In this document: positions 636-46,624 of the stretch, one piece after another | Position numbering within the stretch: the stretch's first letter is position 1 | Layout of the letters: every line of letters starts with the position of its first letter | IMG/VR virus record: IMGVR_UViG_3300032053_000045 | Location: 1 to 64,000 of that record | Source: a virus | Length of the DNA stretch: 64,000 nt | Direction: 5' to 3' (one strand) | The notes under the pieces: model-generated | Seen by the model: the letters and a program-made list of their open reading frames with translations, nothing else | Database searches by the model: none | What the model was told of the DNA's origin: nothing | Position numbers and translations under genes: made by a program

Positions 636-1694
636 ATGCCGAGTGGTATTTATATTAGAACAAAACAACATAATGAAAATTTAAGTAAAGCAAAAAAAGG
701 TAAACCTACTTGGAATAAAGGTTTAACCAAAGAGATTGATGAGCGAGTAAAGAAGTTAAGCATTAATAGAAAAGGAATAAAGTTTACTGAAGAACATAAA
801 AAAAATATAAGTTTAGGTCATAAAGATAAATCCTGGGAACAAATAATGAATTCTAAAGAAAAAGCGGAAGAACGTAAAAAGAGGCAAAGTAAAATAACTA
901 AAGGTGAAAATAATCCCTTTTATAATAAGAAACATACAGAAAAATCTAGAAAACAAATGAGTGAAGCTAGTAAGGGCAAAAAGAAAAAACCTTTTACAGA
1001 AGAACACTGTAAAAATATAGGTAAAGCTCAAAAAGGTAAAAAGAAAAAACCTTTTACAAAAGAAGCTAAAAAAAATATGAGAGAAGCTGCTAATCGACCA
1101 GAGGTCAAAAGAAAACAAATTGAATTTAGAAAAGACAAATCTTATGAAGAAATTTTTGGGAGTGAAGAAAAAGCTCAAAAAGTTAAAGAAAAACAGAGTA
1201 AATCACATAAAGGTAAACATTCCGGAACACATATAGAAAGATATGGTGAAGAAAGAGCTAAAGAAATAAGTGAGAAAATTAGTATTATCAGAAGGGATAA
1301 AACTTGGGAAGAAATTTTAGGTTCAAAAGAAAAAGCTGATGAGCGAAAAAGAAAGCAAAGTGAAAGACAAATGGGAGAAAAAAATTGGAATTGGCGAGGC
1401 GGAATTGGATTAGAGCCTTATGGTCCAGAATTTAACAACACTTTAAAACAGGAAATCTTCGAAAGAGATCATGGTATCTGTCGGGTCTGTAAACTAAATA
1501 AAGAACAACTTCAGTTTCTTTTCAAAAGAGATAAATGGATTTTTCATGTTCATCATATTGATTATAACAAGAAAAATAACAAAGAAGAAAATTTAATTAA
1601 TCTTTGTATTAAATGTCATTTAGTAACTAATGGTAATAGAGATTATTGGGAAAATTATTTTAGTATCAGACAAATTGGAGCGTTAGCGTGTTAA
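636..1694 (+). CDS. free-standing HNH homing endonuclease with NUMOD3-like repeats
   Basis: Basic repeats (HTEKSRKQMS, FTEEHCKNIG) and C-terminal RD..CRVC..HVHHID..N..NLINLCIKCH. Confidence 0.85.
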   Translation: MPSGIYIRTKQHNENLSKAKKGKPTWNKGLTKEIDERVKKLSINRKGIKFTEEHKKNISLGHKDKSWEQIMNSKEKAEERKKRQSKITKGENNPFYNKKHTEKSRKQMSEASKGKKKKPFTEEHCKNIGKAQKGKKKKPFTKEAKKNMREAANRPEVKRKQIEFRKDKSYEEIFGSEEKAQKVKEKQSKSHKGKHSGTHIERYGEERAKEISEKISIIRRDKTWEEILGSKEKADERKRKQSERQMGEKNWNWRGGIGLEPYGPEFNNTLKQEIFERDHGICRVCKLNKEQLQFLFKRDKWIFHVHHIDYNKKNNKEENLINLCIKCHLVTNGNRDYWENYFSIRQIGALAC

Positions 1695-4543
1695 AAACAA
1701 TCAGTCAATCGAAAAACCCAATTCAGAAAGCGATAGTAATTCGCAAGAAAATTGCTGACATTGATAATATTCGTCCAAATTTTTCTGTAAATAGAGATCT
1801 TAAAGCTTCAAAAATTGGTAACATCAAACACGACATTCAGGACAACGGCGAAATTAAACCCCTCTTTGTGGATGATAATGGTTTAATCGACGGTCATCAT
1901 CGCTATGCAGCCCTTCTTGAGCTTGGTAAAAAGAAAGTTCCTGTCTATGAATTGAAAGGAAATCTTGGGAAATTACCTAAGAGTGTTCAAGATAAAATTG
2001 CTGATAAATACAATATTAATTCAGAGTCTCTTGCGGTTGCAAATTCTCGGGACGTAAATAAATCTTTAGAAAATTTCCATCAAAAAGCAGAAATAAAACT
2101 TAGAGACGGTAATTATAGATATATAAACGGCTTTATTGAACTCGGTCAAGCTCAAGAAGAAGCTAAATATTTCCAGGACAAAACAGTAATTATAGAAGGA
2201 ATCGATGATGATAGCAGAGTGGTTTTTGGGCTGTATAAGAAAGATGAGCCTTTAGAGAAATCTAAGCAATCTCGTCACGATCGTATGTCTAAATTAGGAA
2301 AACCATTTCAAGCCGGTAGTGGGCTTAAAAAAGAAGGTCCTAACTATTATCAAGGAAAAGCAACAGTAGATGTTGATGGCAAAGATGAGGTGCTAAATGC
2401 TCAAGTTTCAAAGCAAAGTTTTCCTGGAAAAAGTTGGTATTTTCTTATAGATAAAGTGGCAGATAAAGCTGACGAACTTTATTCAACAAAAATAGAAGCA
2501 TTCCAAGCATTGGAGGAAGCGGTTAAATTAGGTTTTTACTATTATCCAAAATTAGGATATGTTCTCAATGATAGCAAAGGTGTCAAAAAAGAACAACCTT
2601 TGGAGAAAATATCTACTTTATTTCATGTCACTCCGCGGAAGAACTTAGAGAGAATTATGGTAAATGGTATTCAACCTCAAAAGAAATCTCTTACTCATGG
2701 GGCATTTGGTCAGGACATTCGCACCGACAAAAATAAAGTTTATTTATTTTCTTCTTTTGATGACGCAGCAAGATGGGCTCATAGAGTGGAATGGGATACA
2801 AAAGAACCCGTAGTTATTCTGAGAGTGAAAGATAATAAAAATAACTACACAGAAGACAAACATTTTGAAGCGGGAATGGGTAAAGGCAAATGGTTAATGA
2901 GTGATGCAATAGATCCCAGTAAAATAGATTTTAGAGATGTCATTCATTTTGATTCTAAAACTTTTGGTCCTTTGCTTGTTCAAACAAATGATCCAAATAA
3001 ACATCTTCTTCCTGATGGGACTATTATTGAGAAATCAAAACAGTCCAAACATATGAGAGTGAGATCAGGAAAACCGTATTTTGCCGGCGAAGGAAGTAAG
3101 AAATCAGGTAAATTTAAAGAGGGAGATTCTGTAATATACAAGTTTAGAGAGAATGAACCTGGAGAAAAAGTAATTGTTGTAGATGGACCAGAGAAAATAT
3201 CTGATATTTTTCATCAGAAAAATGCTATTGGTTATAAGATAAAATTACAGAATAAAAAATCTATATGGGTTGATGAAGATAAATTAAGTAAAGGTAAACC
3301 TTTTCAAGCTGGGAAAAGAGGTGTATTCGATGCTCCCATTTTAAGCAAAATTCCTTATAAAGACTCTACAATATATACAAAACAAACAGGGAAAGATGCT
3401 TTTTGGGTTCATGTAAGAAAGACAGCAGGAAAAGGTTATGCCAGTCTTGGTGGAGGATTCAAAACAGAAGATGCCGCTATTGAAACAGCGAAGAAGTTTA
3501 TTGATTCATTCAAAAAACTCGAAGTTAAAAATAAAAGAATTGAACTTGAAAATAAAATTATTCAAAGAGTTGGGAATATAAGTCATGAAGAATTAGAGCA
3601 ATATGATGATAAACAATTATCTAAAATAGCAGAAAATTATGAAATTGGAACAAAAATTAATTGGGATTTAAAATCTACTGGATTTGATTTTTATGATGCT
3701 TTATTAGGTGATAAGCCATATAAAGGTGGGGGAGATTATAAAAATCTTAGAGAATATTATGCGGCCCAAAAAGGTATTAAAGGCGAAATTGTTAAAATGT
3801 CTCCAGATGAATATATGCAGAGGGTTGCAGAGATTCAAAAAATTCCTTTAAAAGAAACATTAGACATGATTGAGCCTAAATTATCGGATGAGTATTTTGA
3901 TAAAATGTCTCAAGGAGCTAAGTTTAATATTCCTTTCTTGGATTATTCAACTGAAAAAGCATCTCAAGAAGGAAGACATAGAGTAATGGCGGCTAAGAAA
4001 TTAGGAGCGAAAGAAATTCCAGTGTTAATAGTTGAAAAAGTTTCACAAGAAGATTTTGAAAAATCTCTCTATGACAGACTAAAACAAGGTACCCCGACAG
4101 AAGAAGATAAAAATAAAATGTCTCAAGTCGGTCACGCAATTGATAGACAGAAAAGAGCTAAACAGAAACAGCACCAGAGAATCAGTAAATTAGGAGTTCC
4201 TTTTCGGGCCGGCGAAGGTGAAAGAGAAGTAAATTTAAAGAAACATTTGAAATTACTTCTAATTAAAAATCTACGTCGTTACCGAGATGCAAAAGAAGTA
4301 GTTGGAGAACACGTTAGCAAAATAATTAAGAAGTTAAAATCTACTAATGAAGTAAAACCCATTCTTGTAGATAAAGAAAATGGAATGGTTGATGGAAGAC
4401 ATAGATTAGCTGCATTAAAGGAATTGGGATTCAAGAAGATTCCTGCTTATTATTTTGATCAAGATCTTTATTTTGATAAAGAAAGCTATATTATTCACGC
4501 TTATAATGATTCTAAAGAAAGAATAAGTTTAGACAAATTATAG
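1688..4543 (+). CDS. large multidomain (polyvalent-type) protein: three ParB/Srx-like domains plus an ART/Tpt1-like domain
   Basis: DGHHR, EGRHR and DGRHR motifs; LFHVT..N..I..GI.P..VYLFS segment; repeated HxRxSKLGKPFQAG linkers. Confidence 0.6.
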   Translation: MLKTISQSKNPIQKAIVIRKKIADIDNIRPNFSVNRDLKASKIGNIKHDIQDNGEIKPLFVDDNGLIDGHHRYAALLELGKKKVPVYELKGNLGKLPKSVQDKIADKYNINSESLAVANSRDVNKSLENFHQKAEIKLRDGNYRYINGFIELGQAQEEAKYFQDKTVIIEGIDDDSRVVFGLYKKDEPLEKSKQSRHDRMSKLGKPFQAGSGLKKEGPNYYQGKATVDVDGKDEVLNAQVSKQSFPGKSWYFLIDKVADKADELYSTKIEAFQALEEAVKLGFYYYPKLGYVLNDSKGVKKEQPLEKISTLFHVTPRKNLERIMVNGIQPQKKSLTHGAFGQDIRTDKNKVYLFSSFDDAARWAHRVEWDTKEPVVILRVKDNKNNYTEDKHFEAGMGKGKWLMSDAIDPSKIDFRDVIHFDSKTFGPLLVQTNDPNKHLLPDGTIIEKSKQSKHMRVRSGKPYFAGEGSKKSGKFKEGDSVIYKFRENEPGEKVIVVDGPEKISDIFHQKNAIGYKIKLQNKKSIWVDEDKLSKGKPFQAGKRGVFDAPILSKIPYKDSTIYTKQTGKDAFWVHVRKTAGKGYASLGGGFKTEDAAIETAKKFIDSFKKLEVKNKRIELENKIIQRVGNISHEELEQYDDKQLSKIAENYEIGTKINWDLKSTGFDFYDALLGDKPYKGGGDYKNLREYYAAQKGIKGEIVKMSPDEYMQRVAEIQKIPLKETLDMIEPKLSDEYFDKMSQGAKFNIPFLDYSTEKASQEGRHRVMAAKKLGAKEIPVLIVEKVSQEDFEKSLYDRLKQGTPTEEDKNKMSQVGHAIDRQKRAKQKQHQRISKLGVPFRAGEGEREVNLKKHLKLLLIKNLRRYRDAKEVVGEHVSKIIKKLKSTNEVKPILVDKENGMVDGRHRLAALKELGFKKIPAYYFDQDLYFDKESYIIHAYNDSKERISLDKL

Positions 4544-7544: not shown

Positions 7545-7618
7545 CGCAGGGTGGAGCAGTTTGGCAGCTCGTTGGGCTCATAACTCAAAGGTCCCTGGTT
7601 CAAATCCAGGCCCTGCTA
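7545..7618 (+). tRNA. tRNA-Met(CAT), initiator-like
   Basis: Acceptor CGCAGGG/CCCTGCT with C1:U72 mismatch, anticodon loop CT-CAT-AA, T-arm CCTGG-TTCAAAT-CCAGG; CCA not encoded. Confidence 0.93.
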
Positions 7619-33128: not shown

Positions 33129-34646
33129 ATGGTTCTTAATTCTTTTACTAGCAAGGTGTCACAAGGGCTTGAAAAGGCATTTAAAAATCAATATGGCATG
33201 AGAGACGTTTCTGACGGCAATGGAATGATTTTAGAAAAATCAATGAAAGCCTGGGTGCCTGGTTATCGATCTTATGATAAATACGGTCAAGAGAAAACTG
33301 GTACTGATTTTCATCTTACTCCAGAGACATTGCGAAGAATGTATCAATATAATTGTGTTGTTAGAATGGCGGTTGACGCAATTATTAACGAGGTCACATC
33401 AGCAAAATGGGATATCATGCCTAAAGAGAAAGATGACAATATTGAAAAGGATAAGGTTAAGCAAGAAGATCAGAAAAAAAGGATCAAAGAAGTAAAAGGT
33501 TTCTTTGAGAAGCCTAATAAAAATAAAGAAAATTTCAGAACAATTTTAGAAAAAATGATGAGGGATTTATTATTATTGGATGCTGGAGTAATAGTTAAAT
33601 CTCATACTCCACAAGGAAGAATAGCAGAAATATATGCAGCAGATGGTGGGACTATAAAAATAGATGCTGACAGACATGGAATGATAAATTGCTTTTGGCA
33701 GGTTATTCAACAAGAAGGACTGAAACCATTAAAATTAGAGTCTAATGAAGTAATTTATCTGATGATGAATCCAAGCACAAATAGTTTATATGGATTATCT
33801 CCATTGGAAACTCTACATAACATTGTTACAGCTTTTCTTTACGGGGAAACATATAACCTGAAGTATTTCGAGAATAGTTCTACTCCAAGAGGAATTCTTG
33901 ATCTCGGTCCTGCAATTACTGAGGATCAGTTAGACAGATTTAGAACTTACTGGCAGTCGGAAACTATTCAACAACCTCATCGAACATTTGTTGTAGGTGG
34001 AGCGTCTGCAGGCTCAAAGTGGACCGCAATTGCAATGACCCCCAAAGATATGGAGTTTAACAACTATATGAATTGGTTATTGAAAGTTATTCTTGCAGTT
34101 TTTGGAGTTAGCCCTTCAGAAGCAGGATGGACAGAAGATTTGAGAGGGGCTCCCGCAACAGGACAATTACTTCAATCTCAGGCTTTTAAGAATAAATCTA
34201 TTTATCCTATGATGGACAAAATTTCATATTATTTAACAAGAGATATTATTTGGGATGAATTTGGTTATGACGATTTAAAATTCGAATTCATCGAGGAAAT
34301 CAGTCTCCAAGAAAAAATGTTAAAAGGACAATACGACAACATGAGAGTAATGTCAGGGATTATGTCAGTTGACGAAATTAGAAAGGAATCAGGTCTTAGT
34401 CCAAAGCCAAAGGAAGAAGAAGGAATGGGAGGTATGTTTGGTGGAGGAGAAGAAGAGGAAGAGGACTTTGAAGCTTCACCAGAGAAACCAAATGATCCAA
34501 ATCAAACACTTGATTTAGTTAAAAAAGAATTAAATAAAAATTCAACAAACACTCAAAAAATGATTGCGAAAGCTTTTAATAAACTTCGTTTTGAGGTACT
34601 ACGAGGTCTGGTGCATAGCCAGTTTTTGAATGAGAACAAACAGTAG
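33129..34646 (+). CDS. portal protein (HK97-like)
   Basis: YGLSPLE, YFEN.STPRGIL, KDMEF, AVFGVSP.E.G, SVDEIRKESGLSP; upstream of the protease. Confidence 0.92.
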   Translation: MVLNSFTSKVSQGLEKAFKNQYGMRDVSDGNGMILEKSMKAWVPGYRSYDKYGQEKTGTDFHLTPETLRRMYQYNCVVRMAVDAIINEVTSAKWDIMPKEKDDNIEKDKVKQEDQKKRIKEVKGFFEKPNKNKENFRTILEKMMRDLLLLDAGVIVKSHTPQGRIAEIYAADGGTIKIDADRHGMINCFWQVIQQEGLKPLKLESNEVIYLMMNPSTNSLYGLSPLETLHNIVTAFLYGETYNLKYFENSSTPRGILDLGPAITEDQLDRFRTYWQSETIQQPHRTFVVGGASAGSKWTAIAMTPKDMEFNNYMNWLLKVILAVFGVSPSEAGWTEDLRGAPATGQLLQSQAFKNKSIYPMMDKISYYLTRDIIWDEFGYDDLKFEFIEEISLQEKMLKGQYDNMRVMSGIMSVDEIRKESGLSPKPKEEEGMGGMFGGGEEEEEDFEASPEKPNDPNQTLDLVKKELNKNSTNTQKMIAKAFNKLRFEVLRGLVHSQFLNENKQ

Positions 34647-35860: not shown

Positions 35861-36270
35861 TGCAAAGAACTGAAGAGTTAAATTTATTTTTAAGATCGAT
35901 TTCAAAATCAGATGTTAGGACGAGACAAAGAAGAGTTAATCGATTTGAAAAAGGGACATTAAAAATGATTGTATTAAGCATTGATGGCGGAATCTTGGCC
36001 GTGACTGGCAGACTAAGGAATGAGCCGGATAGAAAAATTCAAACATTGATATTTAATAAATCGATTAATCCTTATGGAATAAAATCTTGGTCTTTAAGAA
36101 AAGCAAAAGATTGGGTGCATTTGTACAAAAAATCCATAATAAAATCTATTAACCCAGAAAAAATTTCAAATAGAATAATTATTATGAAAGCAATTAAGGC
36201 AGCTGAACATCAAATGATAAACAAATTACCGAAAATTATAAATAAGGTATTACAAGGAGATGAGCAATGA
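35857..36270 (+). CDS. hypothetical head-region protein
   Basis: IQTLIFNK..WS..KAKDWV..H motif; lies between portal and protease. Confidence 0.55.
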   Translation: MMQRTEELNLFLRSISKSDVRTRQRRVNRFEKGTLKMIVLSIDGGILAVTGRLRNEPDRKIQTLIFNKSINPYGIKSWSLRKAKDWVHLYKKSIIKSINPEKISNRIIIMKAIKAAEHQMINKLPKIINKVLQGDEQ

Positions 36271-38039
36271 GTAAATTATTGGGAGGGAATTTTTCTCTTG
36301 ATATTTCCAAGGCCGTGGAAGGTAAAATCAATCCGGCAAAGAAAAAACGGATAATCGAGGGATACATGACAACTCCCGCTCTCGATCTAGAAAATGAAGT
36401 AACAGACAGCAAGGCGTATCCTGAAGCTGCCGAAGAATTGAACCAACATGTTCATGATGGATCTCCAATTCCTATTTTTATTGAGCATCGTAGGAAAGAA
36501 ATTTCTTTACCTGTTGGGAGAATTATTTCTGCTGAAGCAAAGCCTAATGGGATATGGTTTAAGGGAGAGATCGCAGAAGGTAAAATAGCAGATCCTGTTT
36601 GGGAGCTGATTGAGCAAGGGATGTTAAACGGATGCTCAATGGGTGGAGATGCCTTAGAAACAGTTCCTGATTTTGATCCTGAGAAAAACAAAGAATTCAA
36701 AAGAATAAAAAAGATGACTATTAGAGAATTATCATTGACAGGGCTACCTGTTAATCCTCAAGCAGTTTTCTCTATGGCAAAATCTTTAAATATCGAAGAA
36801 AGGAAGGTGAGATCAAAATTGGAAAAATTAGAAAAAGCAATAGAAACAGAATATGATATTAGTACTATAGAGAAAGCTGTTAATGATGGAAAAATTGATG
36901 AAGAGAGTATGAAGAGAATAAAATCAGCTCTCGATGGATTAGAACAACTTATTGGAATAAAAACTGATGAAACTCCAACGAAAGAAGAGGCTCCCAAAGA
37001 AACAGAAGTAGCAGAAAAACCCACTGAAGATAAAGGTAAGTTAGATCAAATTTTAGAGAAAATAAATATGCTTGTTGAAAATAAGGAAAAACCTGCAGAA
37101 AAACCCGAAGAAACTATAGAAGAACCAAAAACTACAGAAGCCCCCAAAGAAGAAAAAGAAGAAGGAGGTGAAATGAATATGGCAAAAATGAAAGATATTG
37201 ATGAAAAAGAAGAAGATAAAAAAGAAGCAGAAACACTGAAATGTAAATCTTGTTCGATGGTCTTCGAAAAAAGTGAAGATGAAGATTACGAGGTTAAATT
37301 CTGTCCTAAATGTGGTAAACCATTCGGCGACGAAGAAGTTGAAGGCGAAGTTGATGCTGAAGATAGTGAAGATGGAGAGGAAATCGTTGACGAGGAATCA
37401 GTTGACGAAGAGCCGATGGATGAAGAGGAAGACATTGACGATGAAGAATTAGATCTCGATGAAGAAGGCGAAGATGACGAGGATGAATTCGAAGATGACG
37501 AGGAAGATGATGTTGAAATGGTAAAGTTTGTTGATGATGAGGATGAAGATGACGAGTTTGAGGAAGATGAGGAAGATGAGGATGATGAGTCCTTTGAAAA
37601 GAATTTAGAAATTCTTCAGTCAAAACCGTCAAAAGATTCCGGTCAGTCAATTTCAACATTCAAGGGAGATTATATCAAGCCATCAACTGGTAAACGGACT
37701 AATCCTGCTGACACCACAGAGCACGAACATCCGAAGCCATTCAAGCCGTTAGAGACTGGAGTTTCAGGTGAACAGTTTGCTAACTATGGTAAGGATCGTA
37801 CAGAGAAATCTATGAGTTCGTCCAGAATTAAGAGGATGGTTGAGAAAGCTGTTAAGGATTCCGTAGAAGAGACAATTAAATCTTCTATTGAAAAAGCAAT
37901 TGACGCTTCTAATGTTGAAAGAAAAGTTCTTGGTCCGATTGAGAAATCTCAAAATGCGACTCCTGATACTATCAGTGATGACAGAGTTTTCGCTCGTGCC
38001 CTTTCCCAAGGTCTGTCTGATCCGATCCCGATGGAGTAG
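36267..38039 (+). CDS. prohead protease (HK97-type) fused to acidic scaffold-like domain
   Basis: IEGYMT..DLENE, IFIEH..PVG, GCSMGG, ELSLTGLPVNP; C-terminal zinc ribbon and D/E tract. Confidence 0.88.
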   Translation: MSKLLGGNFSLDISKAVEGKINPAKKKRIIEGYMTTPALDLENEVTDSKAYPEAAEELNQHVHDGSPIPIFIEHRRKEISLPVGRIISAEAKPNGIWFKGEIAEGKIADPVWELIEQGMLNGCSMGGDALETVPDFDPEKNKEFKRIKKMTIRELSLTGLPVNPQAVFSMAKSLNIEERKVRSKLEKLEKAIETEYDISTIEKAVNDGKIDEESMKRIKSALDGLEQLIGIKTDETPTKEEAPKETEVAEKPTEDKGKLDQILEKINMLVENKEKPAEKPEETIEEPKTTEAPKEEKEEGGEMNMAKMKDIDEKEEDKKEAETLKCKSCSMVFEKSEDEDYEVKFCPKCGKPFGDEEVEGEVDAEDSEDGEEIVDEESVDEEPMDEEEDIDDEELDLDEEGEDDEDEFEDDEEDDVEMVKFVDDEDEDDEFEEDEEDEDDESFEKNLEILQSKPSKDSGQSISTFKGDYIKPSTGKRTNPADTTEHEHPKPFKPLETGVSGEQFANYGKDRTEKSMSSSRIKRMVEKAVKDSVEETIKSSIEKAIDASNVERKVLGPIEKSQNATPDTISDDRVFARALSQGLSDPIPME

Positions 38040-38351
38040 AGAACCTGTTAGACTAAACATAAAATGTTTGTCGTTAACGCGACGCTTTTCTTAATTTAAA
38101 TCAACGTTGATTCATTTGATTCAAAAATGCGGCTTTTGTCGCGCGGTTGAAAAAGTCCTGAATGTTTGTGATGGTGATCGAAAGAAAACTATCATAAGTG
38201 TGTTATAGACACATCAACTTCAGGCAGAAAAAAGAATTTTATTGTGGTTAAAAAACCACGGCTTGAAGGGGGTGACTTCCTGTGCTGACCCCCGAAGATG
38301 TTAACAACATCAGCGATAATATCCTCAGGAAAAAAGGAGGATAGAAATAAA

Positions 38352-41300
38352 ATGCGTACATCATTCAATTTTGGGTGATGTTAAACTCTACTATATCGGA
38401 GGAAGGTTTAAAAGAAACTAATAAATCAATTCCGAGGAAAGACTGGAATACTCCAGAATCCGTAGAGACTATACGTAGAGCTTCCTGAAAAAGGAAGAAG
38501 ATATAGTCCAAACTGAAGATATAAATAAAACTTCAGAGGAATTCAGAAATGAAATTCCCGCCTTGAAAAAAGGTTAATAAGTAATAGAATGTGAAAAAGC
38601 TTAAATCTGTGTTTTGGAGCTTTTAAAATTTGGCTATATGCTGGGACCTCCAATACTGGACAATCAGCAGGAAAGACTCTTAAAAAAGAGAATCCTCAGA
38701 GACTATACGCCAAACATCTCGTACGCATTCCAGGAAAAAGATGATGATATAGTCCGTTCTATATGGTGACATATAGAGGCAAGTAGAAATATTTGCCCGC
38801 CTTGTAAAAGGTAATAAAAGTAACACGAAGTGAATACAGTTGCCGGAACGGGTGGAGATACCTTGATCCCGCGTTTGGCGGATTTTTAATTTGGTCCGCT
38901 TTAAATTGAGCTAAATCGGTGAACATCTTTTTCTAAAGACAATACCGAGGAAAGACTGGAATACTCCAGAATCCGTAACGACTATACGCTCAACATTGGA
39001 ATAAAATCCATAAAGATATAGTCTAAACTCCAACTATAGATAAAATTGGAGAGGAATTCAGAAATGAAATTCCCGCCTAAAAAACTTTAGGTTATTAAAG
39101 TAATAGAATGCAAATCATTCCGTTTTTAAAATAAGCGGAATTCAAATTGGGCTAATTCGGTAAAAACCTGAAAGAGAAAATTTTTCAGGCAATACCGAGC
39201 TAAATTCAAGAACAATCTTGATAAAAGTGTAGAGACTATAAACCCGATGCTAATTCCTTTAATTAGTAATGATATAGTCCAAACTGCAAATATAAAAATT
39301 AAATTGCAGAGATAAGAAGAAATTCTTATCCGCCTCTTAAACAAGAGGTTATAAAAGTAATAAAATGTTATCCGGCAGAAATCGTGTTTAAATATGCGAC
39401 TTTGAGTAGAGATGCTCATCGAAAATCTCGTAAATTGCTGGAAAATCTTAACAGTCTACTAAACTACAAAGTAATTTCTTTAAAATGAAATAAACTTGAA
39501 TGTTTAAAAATTAGTAGAATTAGACAATCAGCAGGGAAGCTCGAAAGAGAACCTTCAGAGACTAGAGACGAGACATCTGAAAAGATGATGATATAGTCCG
39601 AACTTCAAAGAGATTTGAAGAGTTCTGTTTTAAAAAAACAGAGAGTAACACAATTGATATGCGCCAATTCCTCCCAACATTCGTATTAACTTGCGACTTT
39701 GAGTAGAAATACTCATTGAAAAATTCCGTAAATTGCTGGAAACCCCGAGTATATTTTGGTACAGAAAAATTAAATATTCTGTAAAAATCCAAAATTGCGG
39801 ACAATCAGCAGCCAAGCTTCCTCTAAGGAAGAAGGTTCAGAGACTAAAGACGGAACTTCTGAAAAGAAGATGATATAGTCCGATCTTTATAGCGATATAA
39901 AGAGTTGATAGAGAGAAAATATTTTTCTATCAGAATAACAGAAATGAATGCCGACCCAAGTTTATAGATTTCCTAAGTTAAGTGCTGGTTGATTTTATTG
40001 CAGCCACTTCAAGAAGAAATTCTTGTCGAATAAGCAACTATATCGGGGGAACTCTTCAAGAGAATAAATCTGAAGACAATCCCGACGGAAGAGAATACCA
40101 GAAATGGTGGAAAAAACTCCCGCTAGAGACTACACGTTGCAACCTTGAATAAAGGTTATGATATAGTCCAAACTGCATAGTGATATGCAGAGGAATTCAG
40201 AAATGAAATTCCCGCCTAAAAAACTTTAGGTTATTAAGTAATAGATTGAGCAATGTTTATTATGTTGGTGAGGCGATTGCGGCTCCAGAATCGGCAATGA
40301 GTACCGGAACCGTGGAATTGACTGCGAAGAAATTAATGGTTGATTTTAATGCAGCCACTTTTGAGAGAAATCTCAATTGAAAAATCTTACTATATCGGTG
40401 AAACTCTCGAAAACTATGATATAATATAACTATGGGGCTAAGAAGAGCTTTATAACCTCTTCGAAGGTGCCTAAATCACCAAGCCCCTTCTTTACCTATT
40501 TAGGAGGTAATAAATGAATAAATTTAGAAAATGTTTGTATTGTGATAATTTAGTTAAAGTAAATAAACCTCATATTGCCAGAATTCTTTGTCAAGAATGT
40601 AAAGATAAGAAAAACATTCCTATTTTTAAAGATATTCAGGGGATAGAAAATGTTAATTATGTGATTTGCAAAATTTGCGGATATAAAAGTACGCAATTAT
40701 TTTGGCATATTAAAAAACATCACAAATTAACAGGTAAACAATATAGATCTTTATTCCCTGGAGAAAAATTAATGATTTCTTGGAATTTAGGATTAACATC
40801 TGAAACAGACATTAGAGTTAAGAAAAATGCTGAAAATTCTGGTAAGGTTAGAAAAGGAAAGAAAAATCAAAAATCCAGTGAAACTAAGAAGAAAAAATTT
40901 AAATTGGGTTTATTAAAAATTTGGAATAAAGGCTTAACAATAGAAGATCAAAGAGTTAAAAATTATACAAAAAATCGTGAAAAGACAATAAAAGAAAAAT
41001 TTGCTTCTGGTGAATTAGTTGTTTGGAATAAAGGACAGACAAAATATTCACACCCAAGTATAGCTAAGTCAATAATAACAAGACGAGAAACGATGGCAAA
41101 AATTTAGCTTTAGATCCTCATTATTATGATCTTGACTTTGGTGAACCAAGTAATTTAGATTTAGCTCTATATGCCGAGTTAGAAAAACATAACATAAAAT
41201 ATATTCCACAATATTATTTCGTTTGTTCTGAATTAGAAACAATAATAGATGCGTTTATAGAACCAAATATTTGTGTTTATGTAGATGGTACATATTGGCA

Positions 41301-44300
41301 TAGTCCTGGTCATATGAGAAGTAAAGATAGTTATCAAAAACTTATTCTAAGAAATAAAGGATTCATTCCTTTAAGATTTTCTGAAGAATATTTTTATTCA
41401 AACAAACATTTAGTTATAGAAGAAATTAAAAAAGTTATTCGAGACAATACCGAGGCAACCTGAGAAATCAGAGAGTCCGTAGAGACTACACGTAAGAATC
41501 CTATCTAATCACATAGGAAAAAGATATAGTCCGAACTCTATAGTGATATAGAGAGATAAATAGAAATATTTACCCGCCTCGAAAGAGGTTATAAAGTAAC
41601 AAATTTGTGCCCTCGCCATCAGTGCCGAGTTACAAGAGGATAAATTGTTGTCCTCTAAAAATTGTATTAAAACGGTGAAACGCTTCGAGAATATATGTTA
41701 TAATTAATAGGGGCTAAGATTGACCTCATGAATCAATCGACGGTTGCCCTAACAACCAAGCCCTTCTTTACCTTAGGGGGTATGAAATGAAGAATGATAA
41801 GATTCAATGTCCAATTTGTAAAAATTGGTATCATAATTTGACAGGAAAACATTTGCAAAAACATGGTTATAATTCAGTAAAACAGTTTTTATTAGATTAT
41901 CCTAATTCTAAAACAATATCTAATAGAGTATCAAAAATTCTTTCAAAACATTGGCATAAGAAATTAAAACCAATGCGTAAAGAAATAGGTAGAAAATCTA
42001 GTGAGACTAAAAAAGAAAGATTTAAACTAGGTTTATTGGAACCTTGGAATAAAGGATTAACTAAAGAGACTGATAAAAGAATTAAGAAAAATGGTGAAAG
42101 TGTTTCTAATACATGGAAAAGAAAATCAAAAAGGGAAAAGAAAAAATATGGAAAAGTCGTCAGCAAAAGATTAAAAGGTAGAAGTTGGAAAGATCTTTGG
42201 GGTGAAGAACAAGCAGAAATAAGAAGTGAAAAACAAAGTAAGAGGTTGAAAGGAAAAGGTAGTCCTTTTTATAAAGATGGAAGATGTTCAGATAAATTAA
42301 ATTATATTAATGATTACGGACCAAATTGGCCAAAGATAAGAAAGGCTATTTATAAAAGAGATAATTGGACTTGTCAAGAATGTTTGGCAAAAGATAGAAA
42401 AGTACTTTGTCATCACATAATAGATTATTTTGATTTTCCGGTAGAAAAAAGAAAAGAATTTGCTCACCATGGATTGAATTTAATTACATTATGTTTTTCT
42501 TGTCATTCAAAATTAATTAACAAAAAGATTCTTAAAGTCAATACCGTGAGGTATTTAGAGATTACAAAATCTAAGTATCTTGTAACGACTACGTATTCAA
42601 AGGCAACTTTGAGTGCTACGTACAACATGCTAAAAAGCATGATGATATAGTCTAAACTGTAGACATAATTCATAAACTGCAGAGATAAGAAGAAATTCTT
42701 ATTCGCTTATTTCAGAATTAGGTTTTCTAAATAAGTTATTAAAGTAATAAATTGGCAATTTTGCCGATTGTGCCAGTTGTCAGAGATGACATGGCCAAAG
42801 CGTTCGCGCTGGCAGAAGAAGATGTGTTCGAATTGATGAGCACCTTTTGAGAGAAATCTCAATCGAAAATTCTACTATATCGGTGGAACTCTTTGTAATC
42901 TATTTGAAATCTATGATATAATATAACTATGGGGCTAAGTTTGAATTAATTACTCAAACGAGGTTGCCTGAACAACCAAGCCCCGTTACTTTTCAGGAGG
43001 TAAATATATGGTTTTTCCAAAAGGAAAAAAGTTTCCAAAATCTGGTATTGAAAAATTAAAAAAGACTTTCAAAAAACGTAAAGAATTAAAATTACACATA
43101 GGAACGAAGAAGATCAATGAAAAAAAGATTAATTATTGTTTAAATTGTGACAAAGAAATAATCGTTTCTGTAAATGGGTGTAATAAGGATAAGAAATTTT
43201 GTTCTTCAAGCTGCGCTTCTTCTTACAATAATAAAATTAGATGGAGCGATAATGAAAAGAAACAAAATTGGATAAGAAAAATCAATGAGACAAGAAAAAA
43301 TAATAATAGTTATCATACTGGAAGTTTAAAAGCAATTCAAACCAGAAGACAAAATAATAATTTATATAGTTGGAACACAGGTTTAACAAAAGAAACTGAT
43401 GAACGTTTGAAAAAAGCTAGTGAAAAACAAAGTAAAGATAGGAAAGGAGTTTCTTGGGTAGATCGCTTTGGAGATGAAACAGCAAAAGATATGAAAAGAC
43501 AAGCTAGACAGAGATTGACAGGTATGATTATCGACGGAAAATTAGAATTAAATTATGGTTTAGAATGGATAAAAATCCGAAAAGAAATTTTAATTAGAGA
43601 TAATTACACTTGTTGTGTTTGTAATGTTGAAAAAGCTGAAAAAGTTCATCACATTGTTCCATATAGAATTATTAAAAAACATGAGAAATTTTTATTAGTA
43701 TCAGTTTGTAAAAAATGTCATTTAAAAATAGAACCAAAGAATATACCGACGGAAGAGATTACCTTTGAATCGTATATAAATTATTATATAAATAAAGGTG
43801 GAAAACTCCCGCTAGAGACTACACGTAGAACCCCTATAACGGGTGATGATATAGTCCGAACCTCAGATATAAAATAAAACTGAGGAGTTATCTAGAAATA
43901 AGATAACCTCTTAAGAAATTAAGAAGTAACAAAATTGTTATCAATGGTAACACGGCTGGTGCTTTTGCGGCTAACGACCCTAAGTTTGCATGGATATGAA
44001 AAATATTTAGTGCCTTACAAGAGAAATCTTGTATAGAAAATTCAGAGAATTGCTGGAAGATCCTAAGAGCTTGTTTAACTACAAAGTAGATTCTGTAAAA
44101 TGAATCAAGCTTGATAGTTTGAAAATAAACAAGATTGGATAATCAGCAGGGGAGCCCGAAAGGGAACCTTCAGAGACTATGTACTGAACTTCCTGAAAAA
44201 GGAAGATGATATAGTCCGTACTTTAGGGAAACTTAAAGAGTTCTGTTTAATAAAACAGAGAATAACACAATAGTCAATGGTATTCGGATTTCAGGAACTG

Positions 44301-46131
44301 GTACAGATGTCAATGCTAGCTCGGCTGCACTTACGCTCGCGAACATCTCGACTTCAATTCAAAATTTGGGCGTCTACGGACGCGACAAATCAGAATTGCT
44401 GCTCGTCGTTTCGTTGAGAGAAGAAAGCAGACTGCGTCAGCTACTTGGTATCAATCTGGCGGTCAACGCACTTGGCCTTACCGGTACGGCACTTCCGGGA
44501 GAGATCGGTAAAGTCTGGGGGGTTCCTGTAGTTGCTACAAACCTCTTACCTACGACTCTTGCCCCGGGAACCTTGTCTGTGGCCCTGATGATCAACAGAA
44601 ATTGTGCAGTTATTGGTGGAAAAATTCGCCAATGTAAAAACTCGTAAATTCGGTGGAACTCCTGCAAAGGACAATACCGAGCCAAGCTTAATAGAGAAAC
44701 TCTCGAAATAGAATTTTTTTATTATGAAGGTGTAACGACTATACACGAGTCTTCTTTAGAAAAAAGAATGAAGATATAGTCTGAGCTGAATAGTAATATT
44801 CAGATGTAGACAGAAATGATCTACATTTGGAAGATAAATTCTTCCAAGATAACAGTCTGGATAGAAGGATCTTCACAATCAAGTCCTCAAATACATCTGG
44901 GGTCTTATAAAAAACTTCGAGAATTGCTGGAAGCCTTTAGAGCTTGTTTAACTACAAAGTAACTTCTCAAATGAAGTAAACTTGAATGTTCTAAAAATAA
45001 ACAAGATTAGGTAATCAGCAGCCGAGCCCGTGAGGGAAGGTTCAGAGACTATGCACGAAGCATTTGTTAAAAATAGATGATGATATAGTCCGATCCTTGT
45101 TGAAAAACAAGCAAATTTTATTATGGGTCTAAGTTGAGAATAATTAACTCCATGTATAAAATTTTGGAATTAAAAATATGCAGATGAGATTTTGATTAGG
45201 TCCGATCAGTTAAAACATAATAGCTGCTTCATAAAGAAATTTATGAATGGGACTTGGCTAATTCGGTGAAACTCCAGAAGTGGAAAACACCGAGCTAAAT
45301 TGAGAAGAGAGTTTCTCTCTCATAAATGTGTAACGACTATATACCAGGCATCCTAAAAGGATGAAGAGATAGTCTGATCTACAAATATAACCAAATGAAA
45401 TTGTAGAGTTGGTAATTCTTATACTTCGTCAATATAAGACAATCCAACACTCAGAAATGAGTTAACAAAATGTACTTGTCGTCGCGTCCGAAAGGATTAT
45501 GAAAAATTAGTCCGTTTAGATAGAAATATCTAAATAAAATAATCTCGAAAATTGCTGGAAGGTCATGAGAGTCAAACAAGCTACAAAATGAATCCTTAAA
45601 TGGATTGAGTTCGAATGCTTTAAAAATTGTTTGAATTTGATAATCAGCAGCCGAGCCCGAAAGGGAAGGTTCAACGACTACGCCCGAGACATCTCTAAAT
45701 GAGATGATGATATAGTCTGATCTTATGGGAAACCTTAAGAGTTGACAGGAAATGTTTCTTGTCAGAATAACACAAATGTGGTTTCGCTATGCAATACGCC
45801 GACGCCTCGGTTCGGATTATTAATATAAATAGTTCCATTTAAGAGTAATCTTAAATTGCAAACTCAGAGAATTGCTGGAAGGTCCTTAGAGCTTGTTTAA
45901 CTACAACATAATCTATGTTATAATAGATAAGTGTGAATGTTTGAAAATAAACAAGATTGGATAATCAGCAGCCGAGCCCGAAAGGGAAGGTTCAGAGACT
46001 ATGTACTGAGTTTCCTCGAGAGAGGAAAATGATATAGTCCGATCTCATAGGAAACTATGAGAGTTGTAGAGAGAATATTTAAAAATATTTCATCTGCAGA
46101 ATAACACAAATGTATTAATATCGCACCTTAG
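38352..46131 (+). CDS. major capsid protein (HK97 fold), 305 aa, split into 17 exons by 16 group I introns
   Basis: AAGGAGG RBS. Exons: 38352-38365, 38592-38602, 38831-38883, 39111-39123, 39368-39385, 39657-39684, 39947-39989, 40249-40340, 41608-41641, 42755-42827, 43938-43991, 44274-44617, 44860-44887, 45181-45210, 45473-45497, 45779-45817, 46113-46131. They join to 918 nt with no internal stop. Motifs: KAL.T..GTGG.TLIP, YVGE...PES, VELTAKKL, IS.EL.ED, EED.FING, G.VWGVPVV, IGDRR, SERIGF. Confidence 0.93.
38366..38591 (+). ncRNA. group I intron 1 of capsid gene (226 nt)
   Basis: P1 ACATCATT/GGTGATGT, P3 CTCTAC/GTAGAG, P7 GACTA/TAGTC, terminal G. Confidence 0.88.
38603..38830 (+). ncRNA. group I intron 2 (228 nt)
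   Basis: P1 AAAAGCTT/GAGCTTTT, P4 TGCTG/CAGCA, P7 GACTA/TAGTC, terminal G. Confidence 0.88.
38884..39110 (+). ncRNA. group I intron 3 (227 nt)
   Basis: P1 GCGGAT/GTCCGC, P4 TCGG/CCGA, P7, terminal G. Confidence 0.9.
39124..39367 (+). ncRNA. group I intron 4 (244 nt)
   Basis: P1 ATTCCGT/GCGGAAT, P4, P7, terminal G. Confidence 0.9.
39386..39656 (+). ncRNA. group I intron 5 (271 nt)
   Basis: P1 TCGT/GCGA, AATTGCTGGAA..AATCAGCAGG, P7, terminal G. Confidence 0.9.
39685..39946 (+). ncRNA. group I intron 6 (262 nt)
   Basis: P1 TCGT/GCGA, AATTGCTGGAA..AATCAGCAG, P7, terminal G. Confidence 0.9.
39990..40248 (+). ncRNA. group I intron 7 (259 nt)
   Basis: P1 TGGT/GCCA, P3 GCAAC/GTTGC, P7, terminal G. 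Confidence 0.9.
40417..40504 (+). promoter_or_regulatory. extended -10 promoter plus endonuclease-leader RNA motif
   Basis: TGaTATAAT then GGGGCT-AA-GAAGAG/CTCTTC-GAA-GGTG[CCTAAAT]CACC-AAGCCCC; loop pairs with ATTTAGG at the SD. Confidence 0.72.
40514..41463 (+). pseudogene. intron-encoded Vsr/DUF559-like homing endonuclease, interrupted by a -1 frameshift near 41098-41102
   Basis: Frame 0 (zinc finger, WNKGLT repeats) stops at 41107. The -1 frame continues ..IPQYYF..IDAFIEPNICVYVDGTYWH..KD..GFIPLRFSE to TGA at 41463. Confidence 0.75.
41696..41778 (+). promoter_or_regulatory. extended -10 promoter plus endonuclease-leader RNA motif
   Basis: TGtTATAAT then GGGGCT-AA-GATTGA/TCAATC-GAC-GGTTG[CCCTAA]CAACC-AAGCCC; loop pairs with TTAGGG at the SD. 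Confidence 0.72.
41787..42650 (+). CDS. intron-encoded HNH homing endonuclease
   Basis: N-terminal CPIC..H..KH finger; RDNWTCQEC..HHI..NLITLCFSCH; ORF reads into the intron core. Confidence 0.88.
   Translation: MKNDKIQCPICKNWYHNLTGKHLQKHGYNSVKQFLLDYPNSKTISNRVSKILSKHWHKKLKPMRKEIGRKSSETKKERFKLGLLEPWNKGLTKETDKRIKKNGESVSNTWKRKSKREKKKYGKVVSKRLKGRSWKDLWGEEQAEIRSEKQSKRLKGKGSPFYKDGRCSDKLNYINDYGPNWPKIRKAIYKRDNWTCQECLAKDRKVLCHHIIDYFDFPVEKRKEFAHHGLNLITLCFSCHSKLINKKILKVNTVRYLEITKSKYLVTTTYSKATLSATYNMLKSMMI
42914..42997 (+). promoter_or_regulatory. extended -10 promoter plus endonuclease-leader RNA motif
   Basis: TGaTATAAT then GGGGCT-AA-GTTTGA/TCAAAC-GA-GGTTG[CCTGAA]CAACC-AAGCCCC; loop pairs with TTCAGG at the SD. 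Confidence 0.72.
43008..43877 (+). CDS. intron-encoded HNH homing endonuclease
   Basis: RDNYTCCVC..VHHIVP..LVSVCKKCH; C-terminal residues are encoded by the intron core. Confidence 0.88.
   Translation: MVFPKGKKFPKSGIEKLKKTFKKRKELKLHIGTKKINEKKINYCLNCDKEIIVSVNGCNKDKKFCSSSCASSYNNKIRWSDNEKKQNWIRKINETRKNNNSYHTGSLKAIQTRRQNNNLYSWNTGLTKETDERLKKASEKQSKDRKGVSWVDRFGDETAKDMKRQARQRLTGMIIDGKLELNYGLEWIKIRKEILIRDNYTCCVCNVEKAEKVHHIVPYRIIKKHEKFLLVSVCKKCHLKIEPKNIPTEEITFESYINYYINKGGKLPLETTRRTPITGDDIVRTSDIK
43992..44273 (+). ncRNA. group I intron 11 (282 nt)
   Basis: P1 GCAT/GTGC, AATTGCTGGAA..AATCAGCAGG, P7, terminal G. Confidence 0.9.
44618..44859 (+). ncRNA. group I intron 12 (242 nt)
   Basis: P1 ATTGGT/GCCAAT, P3 ACTCGT/ACGAGT, P7, terminal G. 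Confidence 0.9.
44888..45180 (+). ncRNA. group I intron 13 (293 nt)
   Basis: P1 CCT/GGG, AATTGCTGGAA..AATCAGCAG, P7, terminal G. Confidence 0.87.
45211..45472 (+). ncRNA. group I intron 14 (262 nt)
   Basis: P1 CAGT/GCTG, P4 TCGG/CCGA, P7 GACTA/GAGATAGTC, terminal G. Confidence 0.88.
45498..45778 (+). ncRNA. group I intron 15 (281 nt)
   Basis: P1 GGAT/GTCC, AATTGCTGGAA..AATCAGCAG, P7, terminal G. Confidence 0.9.
45818..46112 (+). ncRNA. group I intron 16 (295 nt)
   Basis: P1 GGAT/GTTCC, P3 AACTCAG/CTGAGTT, P7, terminal G. Confidence 0.88.
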
Positions 46132-46291: not shown

Positions 46292-46624
46292 ATGAAGTTT
46301 AAATTGTCAGAATCCGTTTCCCTGAATTGGAACCGGAGAGATGGAAAAGATACTGTTGATGCATACGAAATTAGGGCTGGTGTTTTTTCAGTCGATCTTC
46401 CTAAAGATGTTTCTGAGTATATGTTAGATTATTATAAAGATAAAATTCTGGACATCGACGATAAAAAAGAGGAAGTAAAACCGGTTGAAGAAGTAATTAA
46501 AGAAGTCAAAGCTCAAAGTGCAGAAAAAACAAAGAAATTTGAAGAGGAAAAAGCCGAGGAAGAGAAGCAGAAATCTAAACCTACACCCGGGTTATCTTTG
46601 GCTGACCTCGCTAAAAACGCTTGA
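46292..46624 (+). CDS. hypothetical head-region protein
   Basis: AAGGAGG RBS; follows the capsid gene. Confidence 0.6.
   Translation: MKFKLSESVSLNWNRRDGKDTVDAYEIRAGVFSVDLPKDVSEYMLDYYKDKILDIDDKKEEVKPVEEVIKEVKAQSAEKTKKFEEEKAEEEKQKSKPTPGLSLADLAKNA

Follow-up and report, generated by a model that had tools for sequence, protein, structure and literature searches.

The locus described here raises the question of where a phage encodes its major capsid protein when the capsid slot of its head module contains no contiguous capsid gene. The stretch analyzed (the window) comprises the first 64 kb of the 73,817-bp linear IMG/VR viral record IMGVR_UViG_3300032053_000045 (CheckV completeness estimate 59%), has a GC content of ~33% and carries practically every gene on the + strand, which is also the strand of every exon, intron and intron ORF located below. 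Its head module includes a portal gene at 33129-34646 (PF04860 match), and in the 8.25-kb stretch that separates the protease gene from the next conserved gene (at 46292) three internal open reading frames (ORFs) are the only long ones. The capsid slot measures only 1.16 kb in the intronless relative L001, a 113-kb contig with the identical order of portal, two small genes, protease-scaffold, major capsid protein (MCP) and four downstream genes. This shared gene order agrees with an earlier model reading of the bare nucleotide sequence (the original prediction), which had placed a capsid gene directly after the protease. Our analysis points to a single functional HK97-type major capsid gene at 38352-46131 that has been invaded by 16 group I introns, each predicted to excise itself, and we estimate the probability of this reading at roughly 85%.

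The identity of the product was approached through the sole long exon of the locus (exon 12, 44274-44617, 344 nt), of which positions 44276-44590 served as the query against a collection of 5.8 billion proteins. All 36 proteins retrieved belong to PF05065 (Phage_capsid), and the contiguous 306-aa proteins among them were 84-85% identical over the exon. The complete spliced product shares 266/305 residues (87%) with P0003 and 253/305 residues (83%) with P0002, and it is assigned to PF05065 through these two full-length relatives, which match the family with E values of 7.5e-30 and 7.5e-31, respectively, over profile positions 1-279 of 280. In addition, a profile built from 21 family members matched the PDB sequences of solved major capsid proteins (8ho3, 5tjt and the HK97-family 6tba), in support of the HK97-type capsid proposed in the original prediction. 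An AlphaFold2 model of P0003 derived from a 21-sequence alignment (pLDDT 52.5, pTM 0.43) was too poor for a fold search and was not used. Exon 12 alone matched nothing in Pfam and PHROGs, and the family was reached only via the full-length relatives. A six-frame PF05065 search of the whole 73.8-kb record likewise returned nothing, which indicates both that the record holds no second capsid gene of the PF05065 family and that the fragmented gene is invisible to profile-based annotation, as had been anticipated for ordinary gene callers. Among GenBank phages neither a DNA relative of the head module nor a protein relative of exon 12 was found, which assigns the phage to an uncultured clade.

The exon-intron structure was derived with a protein-to-genome dynamic programme that used the intronless P0003 as its only reference and required exons to end in T and introns to end in G; the coordinates of the original prediction did not enter this analysis. 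The spliced alignment resulted in 17 exons with a total of 918 nt including the stop codon, and a 305-aa product. Both the coordinates and the protein sequence are identical to those originally predicted, and alignment to the intronless relatives, one of the checks proposed at the time, thus reproduced the same junctions. A frame-preserving solution matching P0003 under the T/G rule was obtained at 16/16 junctions with no stop or frameshift in any of the exons, and the reading frame is kept across the gene as proposed. Introns account for 6862 of the 7780 nt (88%) of the locus, corresponding to one intron per 57 coding nucleotides, and the shortest exon has 11 nt. Thirteen of the introns contain no ORF and span 226-295 nt, while the remaining three carry an ORF cassette in a 5' peripheral loop. 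In-frame stops are present 2-66 nt inside every intron, a distance that is near expectation at 33% GC and is therefore not counted as evidence.

All 16 introns (numbered I1 to I16 from the 5' end) exhibited the characteristics of group I ribozymes. Ten of them scored above the gathering score of the Rfam model RF00028 (50 bits), all on the + strand between positions 38593 and 46061, and a more permissive scan raised this number to 14 (all with E<=4.5e-6) by adding four introns with 35-49 bits. No RF00028 match occurred outside the capsid locus anywhere in the 73.8-kb record, the window included. The forecast of 16 Infernal matches to group I models was borne out for these 14 introns and failed for I9 and I10, for which a lax Rfam scan limited to these two also gave no group I match; in both, the core is interrupted by an ORF cassette of ~830-850 nt, which accounts for the missing matches. 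Collinearity with the ORF-less I7 was observed for I10 (I7 positions 26-67, 74-110 and 114-234 versus I10 positions 25-66, 900-936 and 967-1091), I9 is collinear across the core with I3, I1 and I4, and I8 is collinear with I7 at I8 positions 1-67 and 1102-1265. The ORF cassettes of I8, I9 and I10 comprise 830-1030 nt and are inserted after about nt 40-67. The P3/P4 region is covered solely through the full-length Rfam alignments, such as that of I6, which extends over model positions 1-253.

The remaining hallmarks listed in the original prediction, a P1 helix ending in a U.G pair, a GACTA/TAGTC P7 and a terminal G, were present in 16/16 introns, the terminal G being required by the aligner. 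The P1 helices consist of 4-8 bp, and the guide G is found at a distance of 9-19 nt from the intron start; among random U positions 32% attain 4 bp, but none of 20000 resamples of 16 such positions reached the observed mean. Each intron contains one GACTA...(15-90 nt)...TAGTC pair at a distance of 61-106 nt from its 3' end, giving 16 pairs in the locus versus one in the other ~56 kb. P10 pairings of at least 3 bp, formed by the bases 5' of the guide strand and the start of the downstream exon, were detected for 11/16 introns compared with 22% of mismatched intron/exon pairs. P10 pairing is common but not universal in group I introns. RNAalifold, applied to a plain MAFFT alignment of the 13 ORF-less introns, returned an invariant P7 and recovered the P8 and P9 hairpins, in which 12 of the 17 predicted pairs were kept by changes on both strands. 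These compensatory changes suggest that the intron paralogues diverged under structural constraint. The intron cores shared 71-80% identity with intron regions of phages of Bacillus, Flavobacterium and Staphylococcus (the latter Twort-like), a similarity that may point to subgroup IA2, which is typical of phage introns. Judged by these features, all 16 introns are complete group I ribozymes, each with its own predicted core and its own guide. The capsid coding sequence shows a dN of 0.138 in comparison with L001 at saturated synonymous sites, with all 17 exons free of stops and frameshifts; together with the kept guide sequences and the compensatory stem changes, this dN argues for purifying selection on the capsid gene as well as on its introns.

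In the following description of the individual elements, bit scores refer to RF00028, helix lengths to P1 and P10, and the P7 pair, being common to all introns, is not repeated. A Shine-Dalgarno sequence (AGGAGG, 38337-38342, + strand) is recognizable in the sequence 9 nt before the capsid start codon. Exon 1 (38352-38365, 14 nt), encoding MRTS plus 2 nt, is followed by the ORF-less I1 (38366-38591, 226 nt; 45.1 bits, E 4e-9; P1 8 bp, P10 5 bp) and by exon 2 (38592-38602, 11 nt), of which 8/11 nt lie within P1 of I2 (38603-38830, 228 nt; 81.6 bits; P1 8 bp, P10 4 bp). Exon 3 (38831-38883, 53 nt) and exon 4 (39111-39123, 13 nt) precede I3 (38884-39110, 227 nt; 39-41.5 bits; P1 7 bp, P10 5 bp) and I4 (39124-39367, 244 nt; 49.1 bits; P1 7 bp, P10 4 bp), respectively. 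Exon 5 (39368-39385, 18 nt), exon 6 (39657-39684, 28 nt) and exon 7 (39947-39989, 43 nt) are separated by I5 (39386-39656, 271 nt; 82.6 bits; P1 4 bp, TCGT/GCGA; P10 4 bp) and its sibling I6 (39685-39946, 262 nt; 83.3 bits; P1 4 bp), which have guide and target in common. A second pair of siblings consists of I7 (39990-40248, 259 nt; 58.1 bits; P1 4 bp, TGGT/GCCA; no P10 found) and I8 (40341-41607, 1267 nt, with ORF cassette; 35 bits for the 3' part; P1 4 bp, P10 3 bp), which flank exon 8 (40249-40340, 92 nt).

Exon 9 (41608-41641, 34 nt), exon 10 (42755-42827, 73 nt) and exon 11 (43938-43991, 54 nt) alternate with the two introns that contain an HNH ORF and have no Rfam match, I9 (41642-42754, 1113 nt; P1 7 bp, P10 6 bp) and I10 (42828-43937, 1110 nt; P1 4 bp, P10 8 bp). 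The long exon 12 is bordered by I11 (43992-44273, 282 nt; 68.6 bits; P1 4 bp) and I12 (44618-44859, 242 nt; 73.1 bits; P1 7 bp, P10 3 bp). Further downstream, exon 13 (44860-44887, 28 nt), exon 14 (45181-45210, 30 nt) and exon 15 (45473-45497, 25 nt) are separated by I13 (44888-45180, 293 nt; 74.0 bits; P1 5 bp; no P10 found) and I14 (45211-45472, 262 nt; 62.5 bits; P1 4 bp). Exon 16 (45779-45817, 39 nt) lies between I15 (45498-45778, 281 nt; 82.1 bits; P1 4 bp, GGAT/GTCC; P10 6 bp) and its sibling I16 (45818-46112, 295 nt; 76.8 bits; P1 4 bp, P10 4 bp), which have the GGAT target in common. Exon 17 (46113-46131, 19 nt including the TAG stop) completes the gene with the C-terminus ...NIAP that is also found in P0003. 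All exons were placed by the spliced alignment, and exons 3 and 6 to 16 are in addition covered by tblastn high-scoring segment pairs (HSPs), that of exon 10 being 100% identical.

The ORFs of the three longer introns may have their own promoters, as in T4 introns. The ORF in I9 (41787-42650, 287 aa) matched the HNH family PF01844 (E 2e-5; 25 bits versus a cut-off of 21.4 bits) and PHROG HNH families with E values down to 5e-13, while the ORF in I10 (43008-43877, 289 aa) matched PHROG HNH families down to 5e-12 and had no Pfam match; by homology both encode HNH-type homing endonucleases. The ORF in I8 (40514-41107, 197 aa) encodes a ROS/MucR-type zinc finger (PF05443, E 4e-4, below the curated cut-off), and its neighbours in the atlas were clusters of phage ROS_MUCR proteins (score 0.93), part of them fusions with NUMOD3, HNH-repeat or DUF559 modules. 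No nuclease domain was recognized in this ORF with Pfam or the atlas clusters, and it may be a homing-endonuclease module, either degenerate or of a novel type, or else bind RNA or DNA in the manner of a maturase. Sigma-70-like sites with an extended -10 element (TG + TATAAT) and 10/12 matches were noted at 40398-40425, 41675-41704 and 42893-42922, in each case ~90 nt before an intron ORF start; these are consensus matches only, and their total in the region is no higher than in shuffled controls.

Scans of viral and metagenome contigs yielded 35 related loci, among which the capsid gene differs widely in its intron content. A contiguous capsid gene without Rfam intron is present in L001-L004, L006, L016 and L023, while one insertion each was observed in L010 and L011, two in L012 (a complete 178-kb genome with terminal repeats) and L013, three in L009 and L014, and at least four in L015/L034, which represent one phage. 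Since the aligner, with the window protein as its reference, over-split the relatives near their ~12-aa insertion and at contig ends, introns of relatives were counted only if they were long, contained the P7 pair and were flanked by strong HSPs. Several sites are occupied in more than one phage. I9 and the first intron of L014 are orthologous (400 bits) and both follow codon 102, I10 is orthologous with the second intron of L014 (414 bits) and an intron of L034 (282 bits), all located in codon 127, and the second introns of L013 and L015 (499 bits) both follow codon 223. The I3 site (D26|Q27, after codon 26) also carries an intron in L018 and L005, the I15 site (codon 286, phase 2) in L015, and a site at approximately codon 144 is likewise common to the window and relatives. 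Approximately ten further sites were found only in relatives, around codons 17, 23, 33, 48, 56, 81, 109, 212, 223 and 290, bringing the clade-wide total to at least about 25 insertion sites in the capsid gene. Moreover, the whole records of five relatives contained Rfam-detectable introns only in the capsid gene. On these comparisons, the capsid gene is a clade-wide intron hotspot of which the present genome is the extreme, and the clade offers a natural series for intron gain and loss with 0, 1, 2, 3, at least 4 and 16 introns in one gene. The introns in L015 (1-4100) and L034, L014 (1500-5500), L009 (5800-9530) and L012 (7900-10620) are about 850-1200 nt long and number from two to at least four per gene; most of them have room for an endonuclease ORF and most are invisible to Rfam.

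From the anatomy, homology, structural conservation and clade distribution described above we infer how the gene would be expressed. A single pre-mRNA of about 7.8 kb from start to stop codon would be transcribed from the capsid gene, and each intron would fold alone, with its 4-8-nt guide pairing with the end of the upstream exon (P1, with the U.G pair at the cut) and usually also with the start of the downstream exon (P10). Excision would then proceed by the standard two-step guanosine-initiated reaction, and the 305-aa capsid protein would result only from transcripts in which all 16 splicing events have been completed.

Several observations weigh against this account. The record is one linear metagenome assembly with an estimated completeness of 59%, and the junction patterns I1-E2-I2 and I3-E4-I4 (E, exon) were present in no other viral contig when the window's own record was excluded; this absence neither supports nor refutes the assembly. 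At I5-I8, I10, I11 and I14-I16, P1 has only the 4 bp that 32% of random U positions reach, and I7 and I13 have no P10. The yield of mature mRNA is the 16th power of the per-intron efficiency and thus amounts, by simple arithmetic, to 19% at an efficiency of 0.9 and to 85% at 0.99. P1 of I1, at 7-14 nt after the ATG, would be covered by a ribosome initiating translation, and unspliced RNA would encode no more than MRTSFNFG. Furthermore, the adjacent siblings I5/I6, I7/I8 and I15/I16 have guide/target 4-mers in common (TCGT, TGGT and GGAT, respectively) and enclose exons of 28, 92 and 39 nt. Exon skipping has been reported for tandem group I introns around short exons, with Twort orf142 (23-nt exon) and the Coxiella 23S gene (34-nt exon) as examples, and is likelier with similar neighbours (PMC10136302). 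The three pairs are therefore candidates for exon skipping. Skipping of exon 16 would result in an in-frame deletion of 13 aa.

The short helices and the small size of the introns bear on the possibility that the array is real and expressed but not autonomous, with many of the mini-introns depending either on a ribozyme next to them or on a protein helper, be it an intron-encoded protein acting as maturase or an RNA chaperone from the host or the phage. We consider such dependence rather unlikely. It would be in line with the reduced peripheral domains of the 226-295-nt introns, with the 4-bp P1 helices listed above and with the I8 ORF, a nucleic-acid-binding zinc-finger protein without nuclease domain, and the host chaperones StpA, S12 and IF1 are known to aid the splicing of T4 introns (PMC3984707). 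However, every intron has its own complete core (P3-P9 by Rfam alignment), P7 pair and guide, so that no borrowed ribozyme would be needed, and phage introns of similar size, e.g. those of Twort, self-splice in vitro according to the accounts given in PMC10136302 and PMC3984707.

That the array is an assembly chimera, in which an intron-bearing branch was threaded at each polymorphic site while the real genomes carry fewer introns, as their relatives do, is highly improbable. One metagenomic contig is the sole source, the relatives contain only from none to at least four introns with intron presence clearly polymorphic in the clade, and no independent contig with matching junctions was found, all of which would fit such an artifact. 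Yet 14/15 internal exons measure 11-92 nt and are thus shorter than a typical 150-nt read, so that one read links both neighbouring introns and read pairs are needed for exon 12 (344 nt) only; it is mainly this relation of exon to read length that makes a chimera unlikely. Unresolved bubbles normally break contigs, yet the 73.8-kb record runs through 16 of these sites, the divergence of the exons from the relatives is even along the gene rather than mosaic, and related arrangements recur in L030 and L031, which were assembled separately.

Very little probability likewise falls to a decaying gene of a defective phage (a dead-end genome or a satellite borrowing a helper capsid) in which some introns no longer splice, for although the extreme intron load, the four introns under the Rfam gathering threshold and the two without any score, the I8 ORF without recognizable nuclease domain and the incomplete genome could be read in this way, the frame is intact over 17 exons with a dN of 0.138 at saturated synonymous sites, P1 is kept at 16/16 sites and P10 at 11/16, the stems show compensatory changes around an invariant catalytic core, ORF insertions and short peripheral regions, rather than core damage, account for the low or absent Rfam scores, and the other genes of the head and tail module are intact.

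A capsid gene with 16 predicted self-excising introns leaves the question of how the array arose. The introns are mutually distant paralogues (about 50-210 bits) that fall into four families, I1/I3/I4/I7, I5/I6/I11/I13/I15/I16, I8/I9/I10 (with I2) and I12/I14. Several 5' exons end in the same 4-mer (GGAT in four, TGGT in three and TCGT in two cases), and the resulting ten sharing pairs exceed the 2.1 expected (P=0.0013); most of this sharing is among sibling introns, which also have guide sequences in common. A preference of the introns for the most conserved nucleotides of the gene was considered and dropped, as conservation within +/-8 nt was 0.766 at the 16 sites versus 0.753 at random sites (P=0.26). 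Two routes would have built the array. Introns would have entered by homing into intronless alleles, which is proposed because the same-site introns of related phages are orthologous, and sibling introns would have spread to new sites of the gene with a guide match of 4-6 nt. Guide-matched sites of siblings are the signature expected of spread by reverse splicing, but the same signature would also arise if only guide-compatible insertions survive, and group I introns have yet to be shown directly to spread by reverse splicing (PMC3984707).

The ORF-bearing introns are located mid-gene (nt 272, 306 and 379 of the coding sequence) with the ORF-less ones within about 2 kb on either side, an arrangement that would allow block transfer by co-conversion in the course of endonuclease-initiated repair. 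The ORF-less introns would most likely have been carried along with the three ORF-bearing ones by co-conversion during recombination between co-infecting relatives. A more specific proposal is that the array is not merely tolerated but constitutes a self-propagating block, built largely by reverse splicing of sibling introns into guide-matching 4-6-nt sites of their own highly expressed transcript and kept together by endonuclease co-conversion: intronless capsid genes of co-infecting phages would be cut through the action of the mid-gene ORF-bearing introns, and their repair would bring in the 13 ORF-less introns. We regard this proposal as quite doubtful. If it were true, the capsid gene would act as a weapon in phage-phage competition and would provide the first natural protein-coding system for testing group I proliferation driven by reverse splicing.

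Group I introns in phage capsid genes are well known, and this case stands at the quantitative extreme of a familiar phenomenon without adding a new type of element; the novelty is one of degree, in the gene whose product the virus needs in the highest quantity. In the mycobacteriophage LittleE (Cluster J), the major capsid gene contains only one group I-type intron, which, as here, follows an exon ending in U and itself ends in G. Its splicing was verified by RT-PCR and N-terminal sequencing (PMC3706429), evidence that an intron can be tolerated in a capsid gene with high expression. Twort orf142 (Landthaler & Shub 1999, via PMC10136302) resembles the present locus in its tandem, similar sibling group I introns around a 23-nt exon; in the account given there it has three introns as opposed to 16, and exon skipping was shown experimentally, whereas the window has exons down to 11 nt and a locus that is 88% intron, with splicing predicted from the sequence. 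The crAss-like Zeta and Delta phages (Yutin et al. 2021, PMC7886860) are likewise uncultured and have core genes, including the major capsid gene, split by group I introns to an extent that defeated annotation. A Zeta capsid gene contains four introns, and 'up to 14 introns ... per genome' was called unprecedented (PMC7886860). Unlike these phages, the window has all its 16 introns within a single gene of 918 nt, the rest of the contig being free of them, and its capsid protein belongs to PF05065. The Zeta gene also renders outdated the statement in the original prediction that classic phage introns number one to about three per gene, with no effect on its conclusion; with 16 introns the present gene carries about four times as many as the densest phage gene we found in the literature (4, PMC7886860).

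Numerous group I introns that are short (mean about 206 nt) and lack an ORF, together with free or intronic HNH endonucleases, also characterize the Jug jumbo gut phages (PMC12880540), for which metatranscriptome reads confirmed splicing for about half of the predictions. Their ~18.5 introns are distributed over a 360-400-kb genome and divide genes into 2-3 fragments, while a similar number is concentrated in one gene here. The sole comparable single-gene load we found in the literature is that of the mitochondrial cox1 of the fungus Agaricus bisporus (Ferandon et al. 2010, PMC2987802), a one-gene intron 'reservoir' with 18 group I introns and one group II intron, in which the patchy occurrence of same-site introns among relatives, similar to the pattern described above, was explained by gain through homing and by loss. 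In contrast to this organellar gene of 29.9 kb with mostly large introns containing endonuclease genes, the present one belongs to a prokaryotic virus, has ORF-less mini-introns at 13/16 positions within a 7.8-kb locus and is subject to transcription that is potentially coupled to translation.

The locus bears on the limits of self-splicing, as 16 tandem ribozymes have to avoid mispairing and sibling introns have to avoid exon skipping, and on the relation between splicing and coupled translation, as the first intron begins 14 nt after the start codon. The sibling introns at guide-matching sites within one gene make reverse splicing experimentally approachable. In addition, intron-dense core genes escape standard pipelines and thereby distort gene-content and completeness estimates for uncultured phages.

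Apart from the capsid gene, the phage has an intact head and tail module, and the presence of a tail sheath gene downstream of the head module characterizes it as myovirus-like. The prohead protease gene (36267-38039, + strand) encodes a 590-aa protein in which the S78 protease (PF04586) is fused to an acidic, scaffold-like C-terminal half, as indicated by its composition and by synteny with L001. This half is of low complexity and extremely acidic (83 Glu and 49 Asp per 390 residues), fits a scaffold rather than a capsid fold and probably makes the protein a protease-scaffold fusion, which would fit a 305-aa capsid protein without a delta domain. Its acidic region (residues ~200-590) contains a zinc-ribbon-like CxxC...CxxC motif (CKSC...CPKC) around residue 330, which relatives have conserved (66% identity over residues 324-353 in L001).

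The capsid pre-mRNA may start from a promoter of its own inside the leader that precedes the capsid gene. Promoter-like and terminator-like counts in the locus showed no excess over shuffled controls. This leader, the 312-nt intergenic region at 38040-38351 between the protease-scaffold gene and the capsid start codon, contains two hairpins, one terminator-like at 38069-38084 and the other GC-rich (GGGGGT...ACCCCC) and ~70 nt before the ribosome binding site. At a greater distance, a 951-aa protein encoded at 1688-4543 begins and ends with ParB-like nuclease/partition domains (residues ~20-90 and ~860-925), and a tRNA gene is located at 7545-7618 (Rfam RF00005, 56.6 bits), with two tRNAs present in the related loci L010 and L011.

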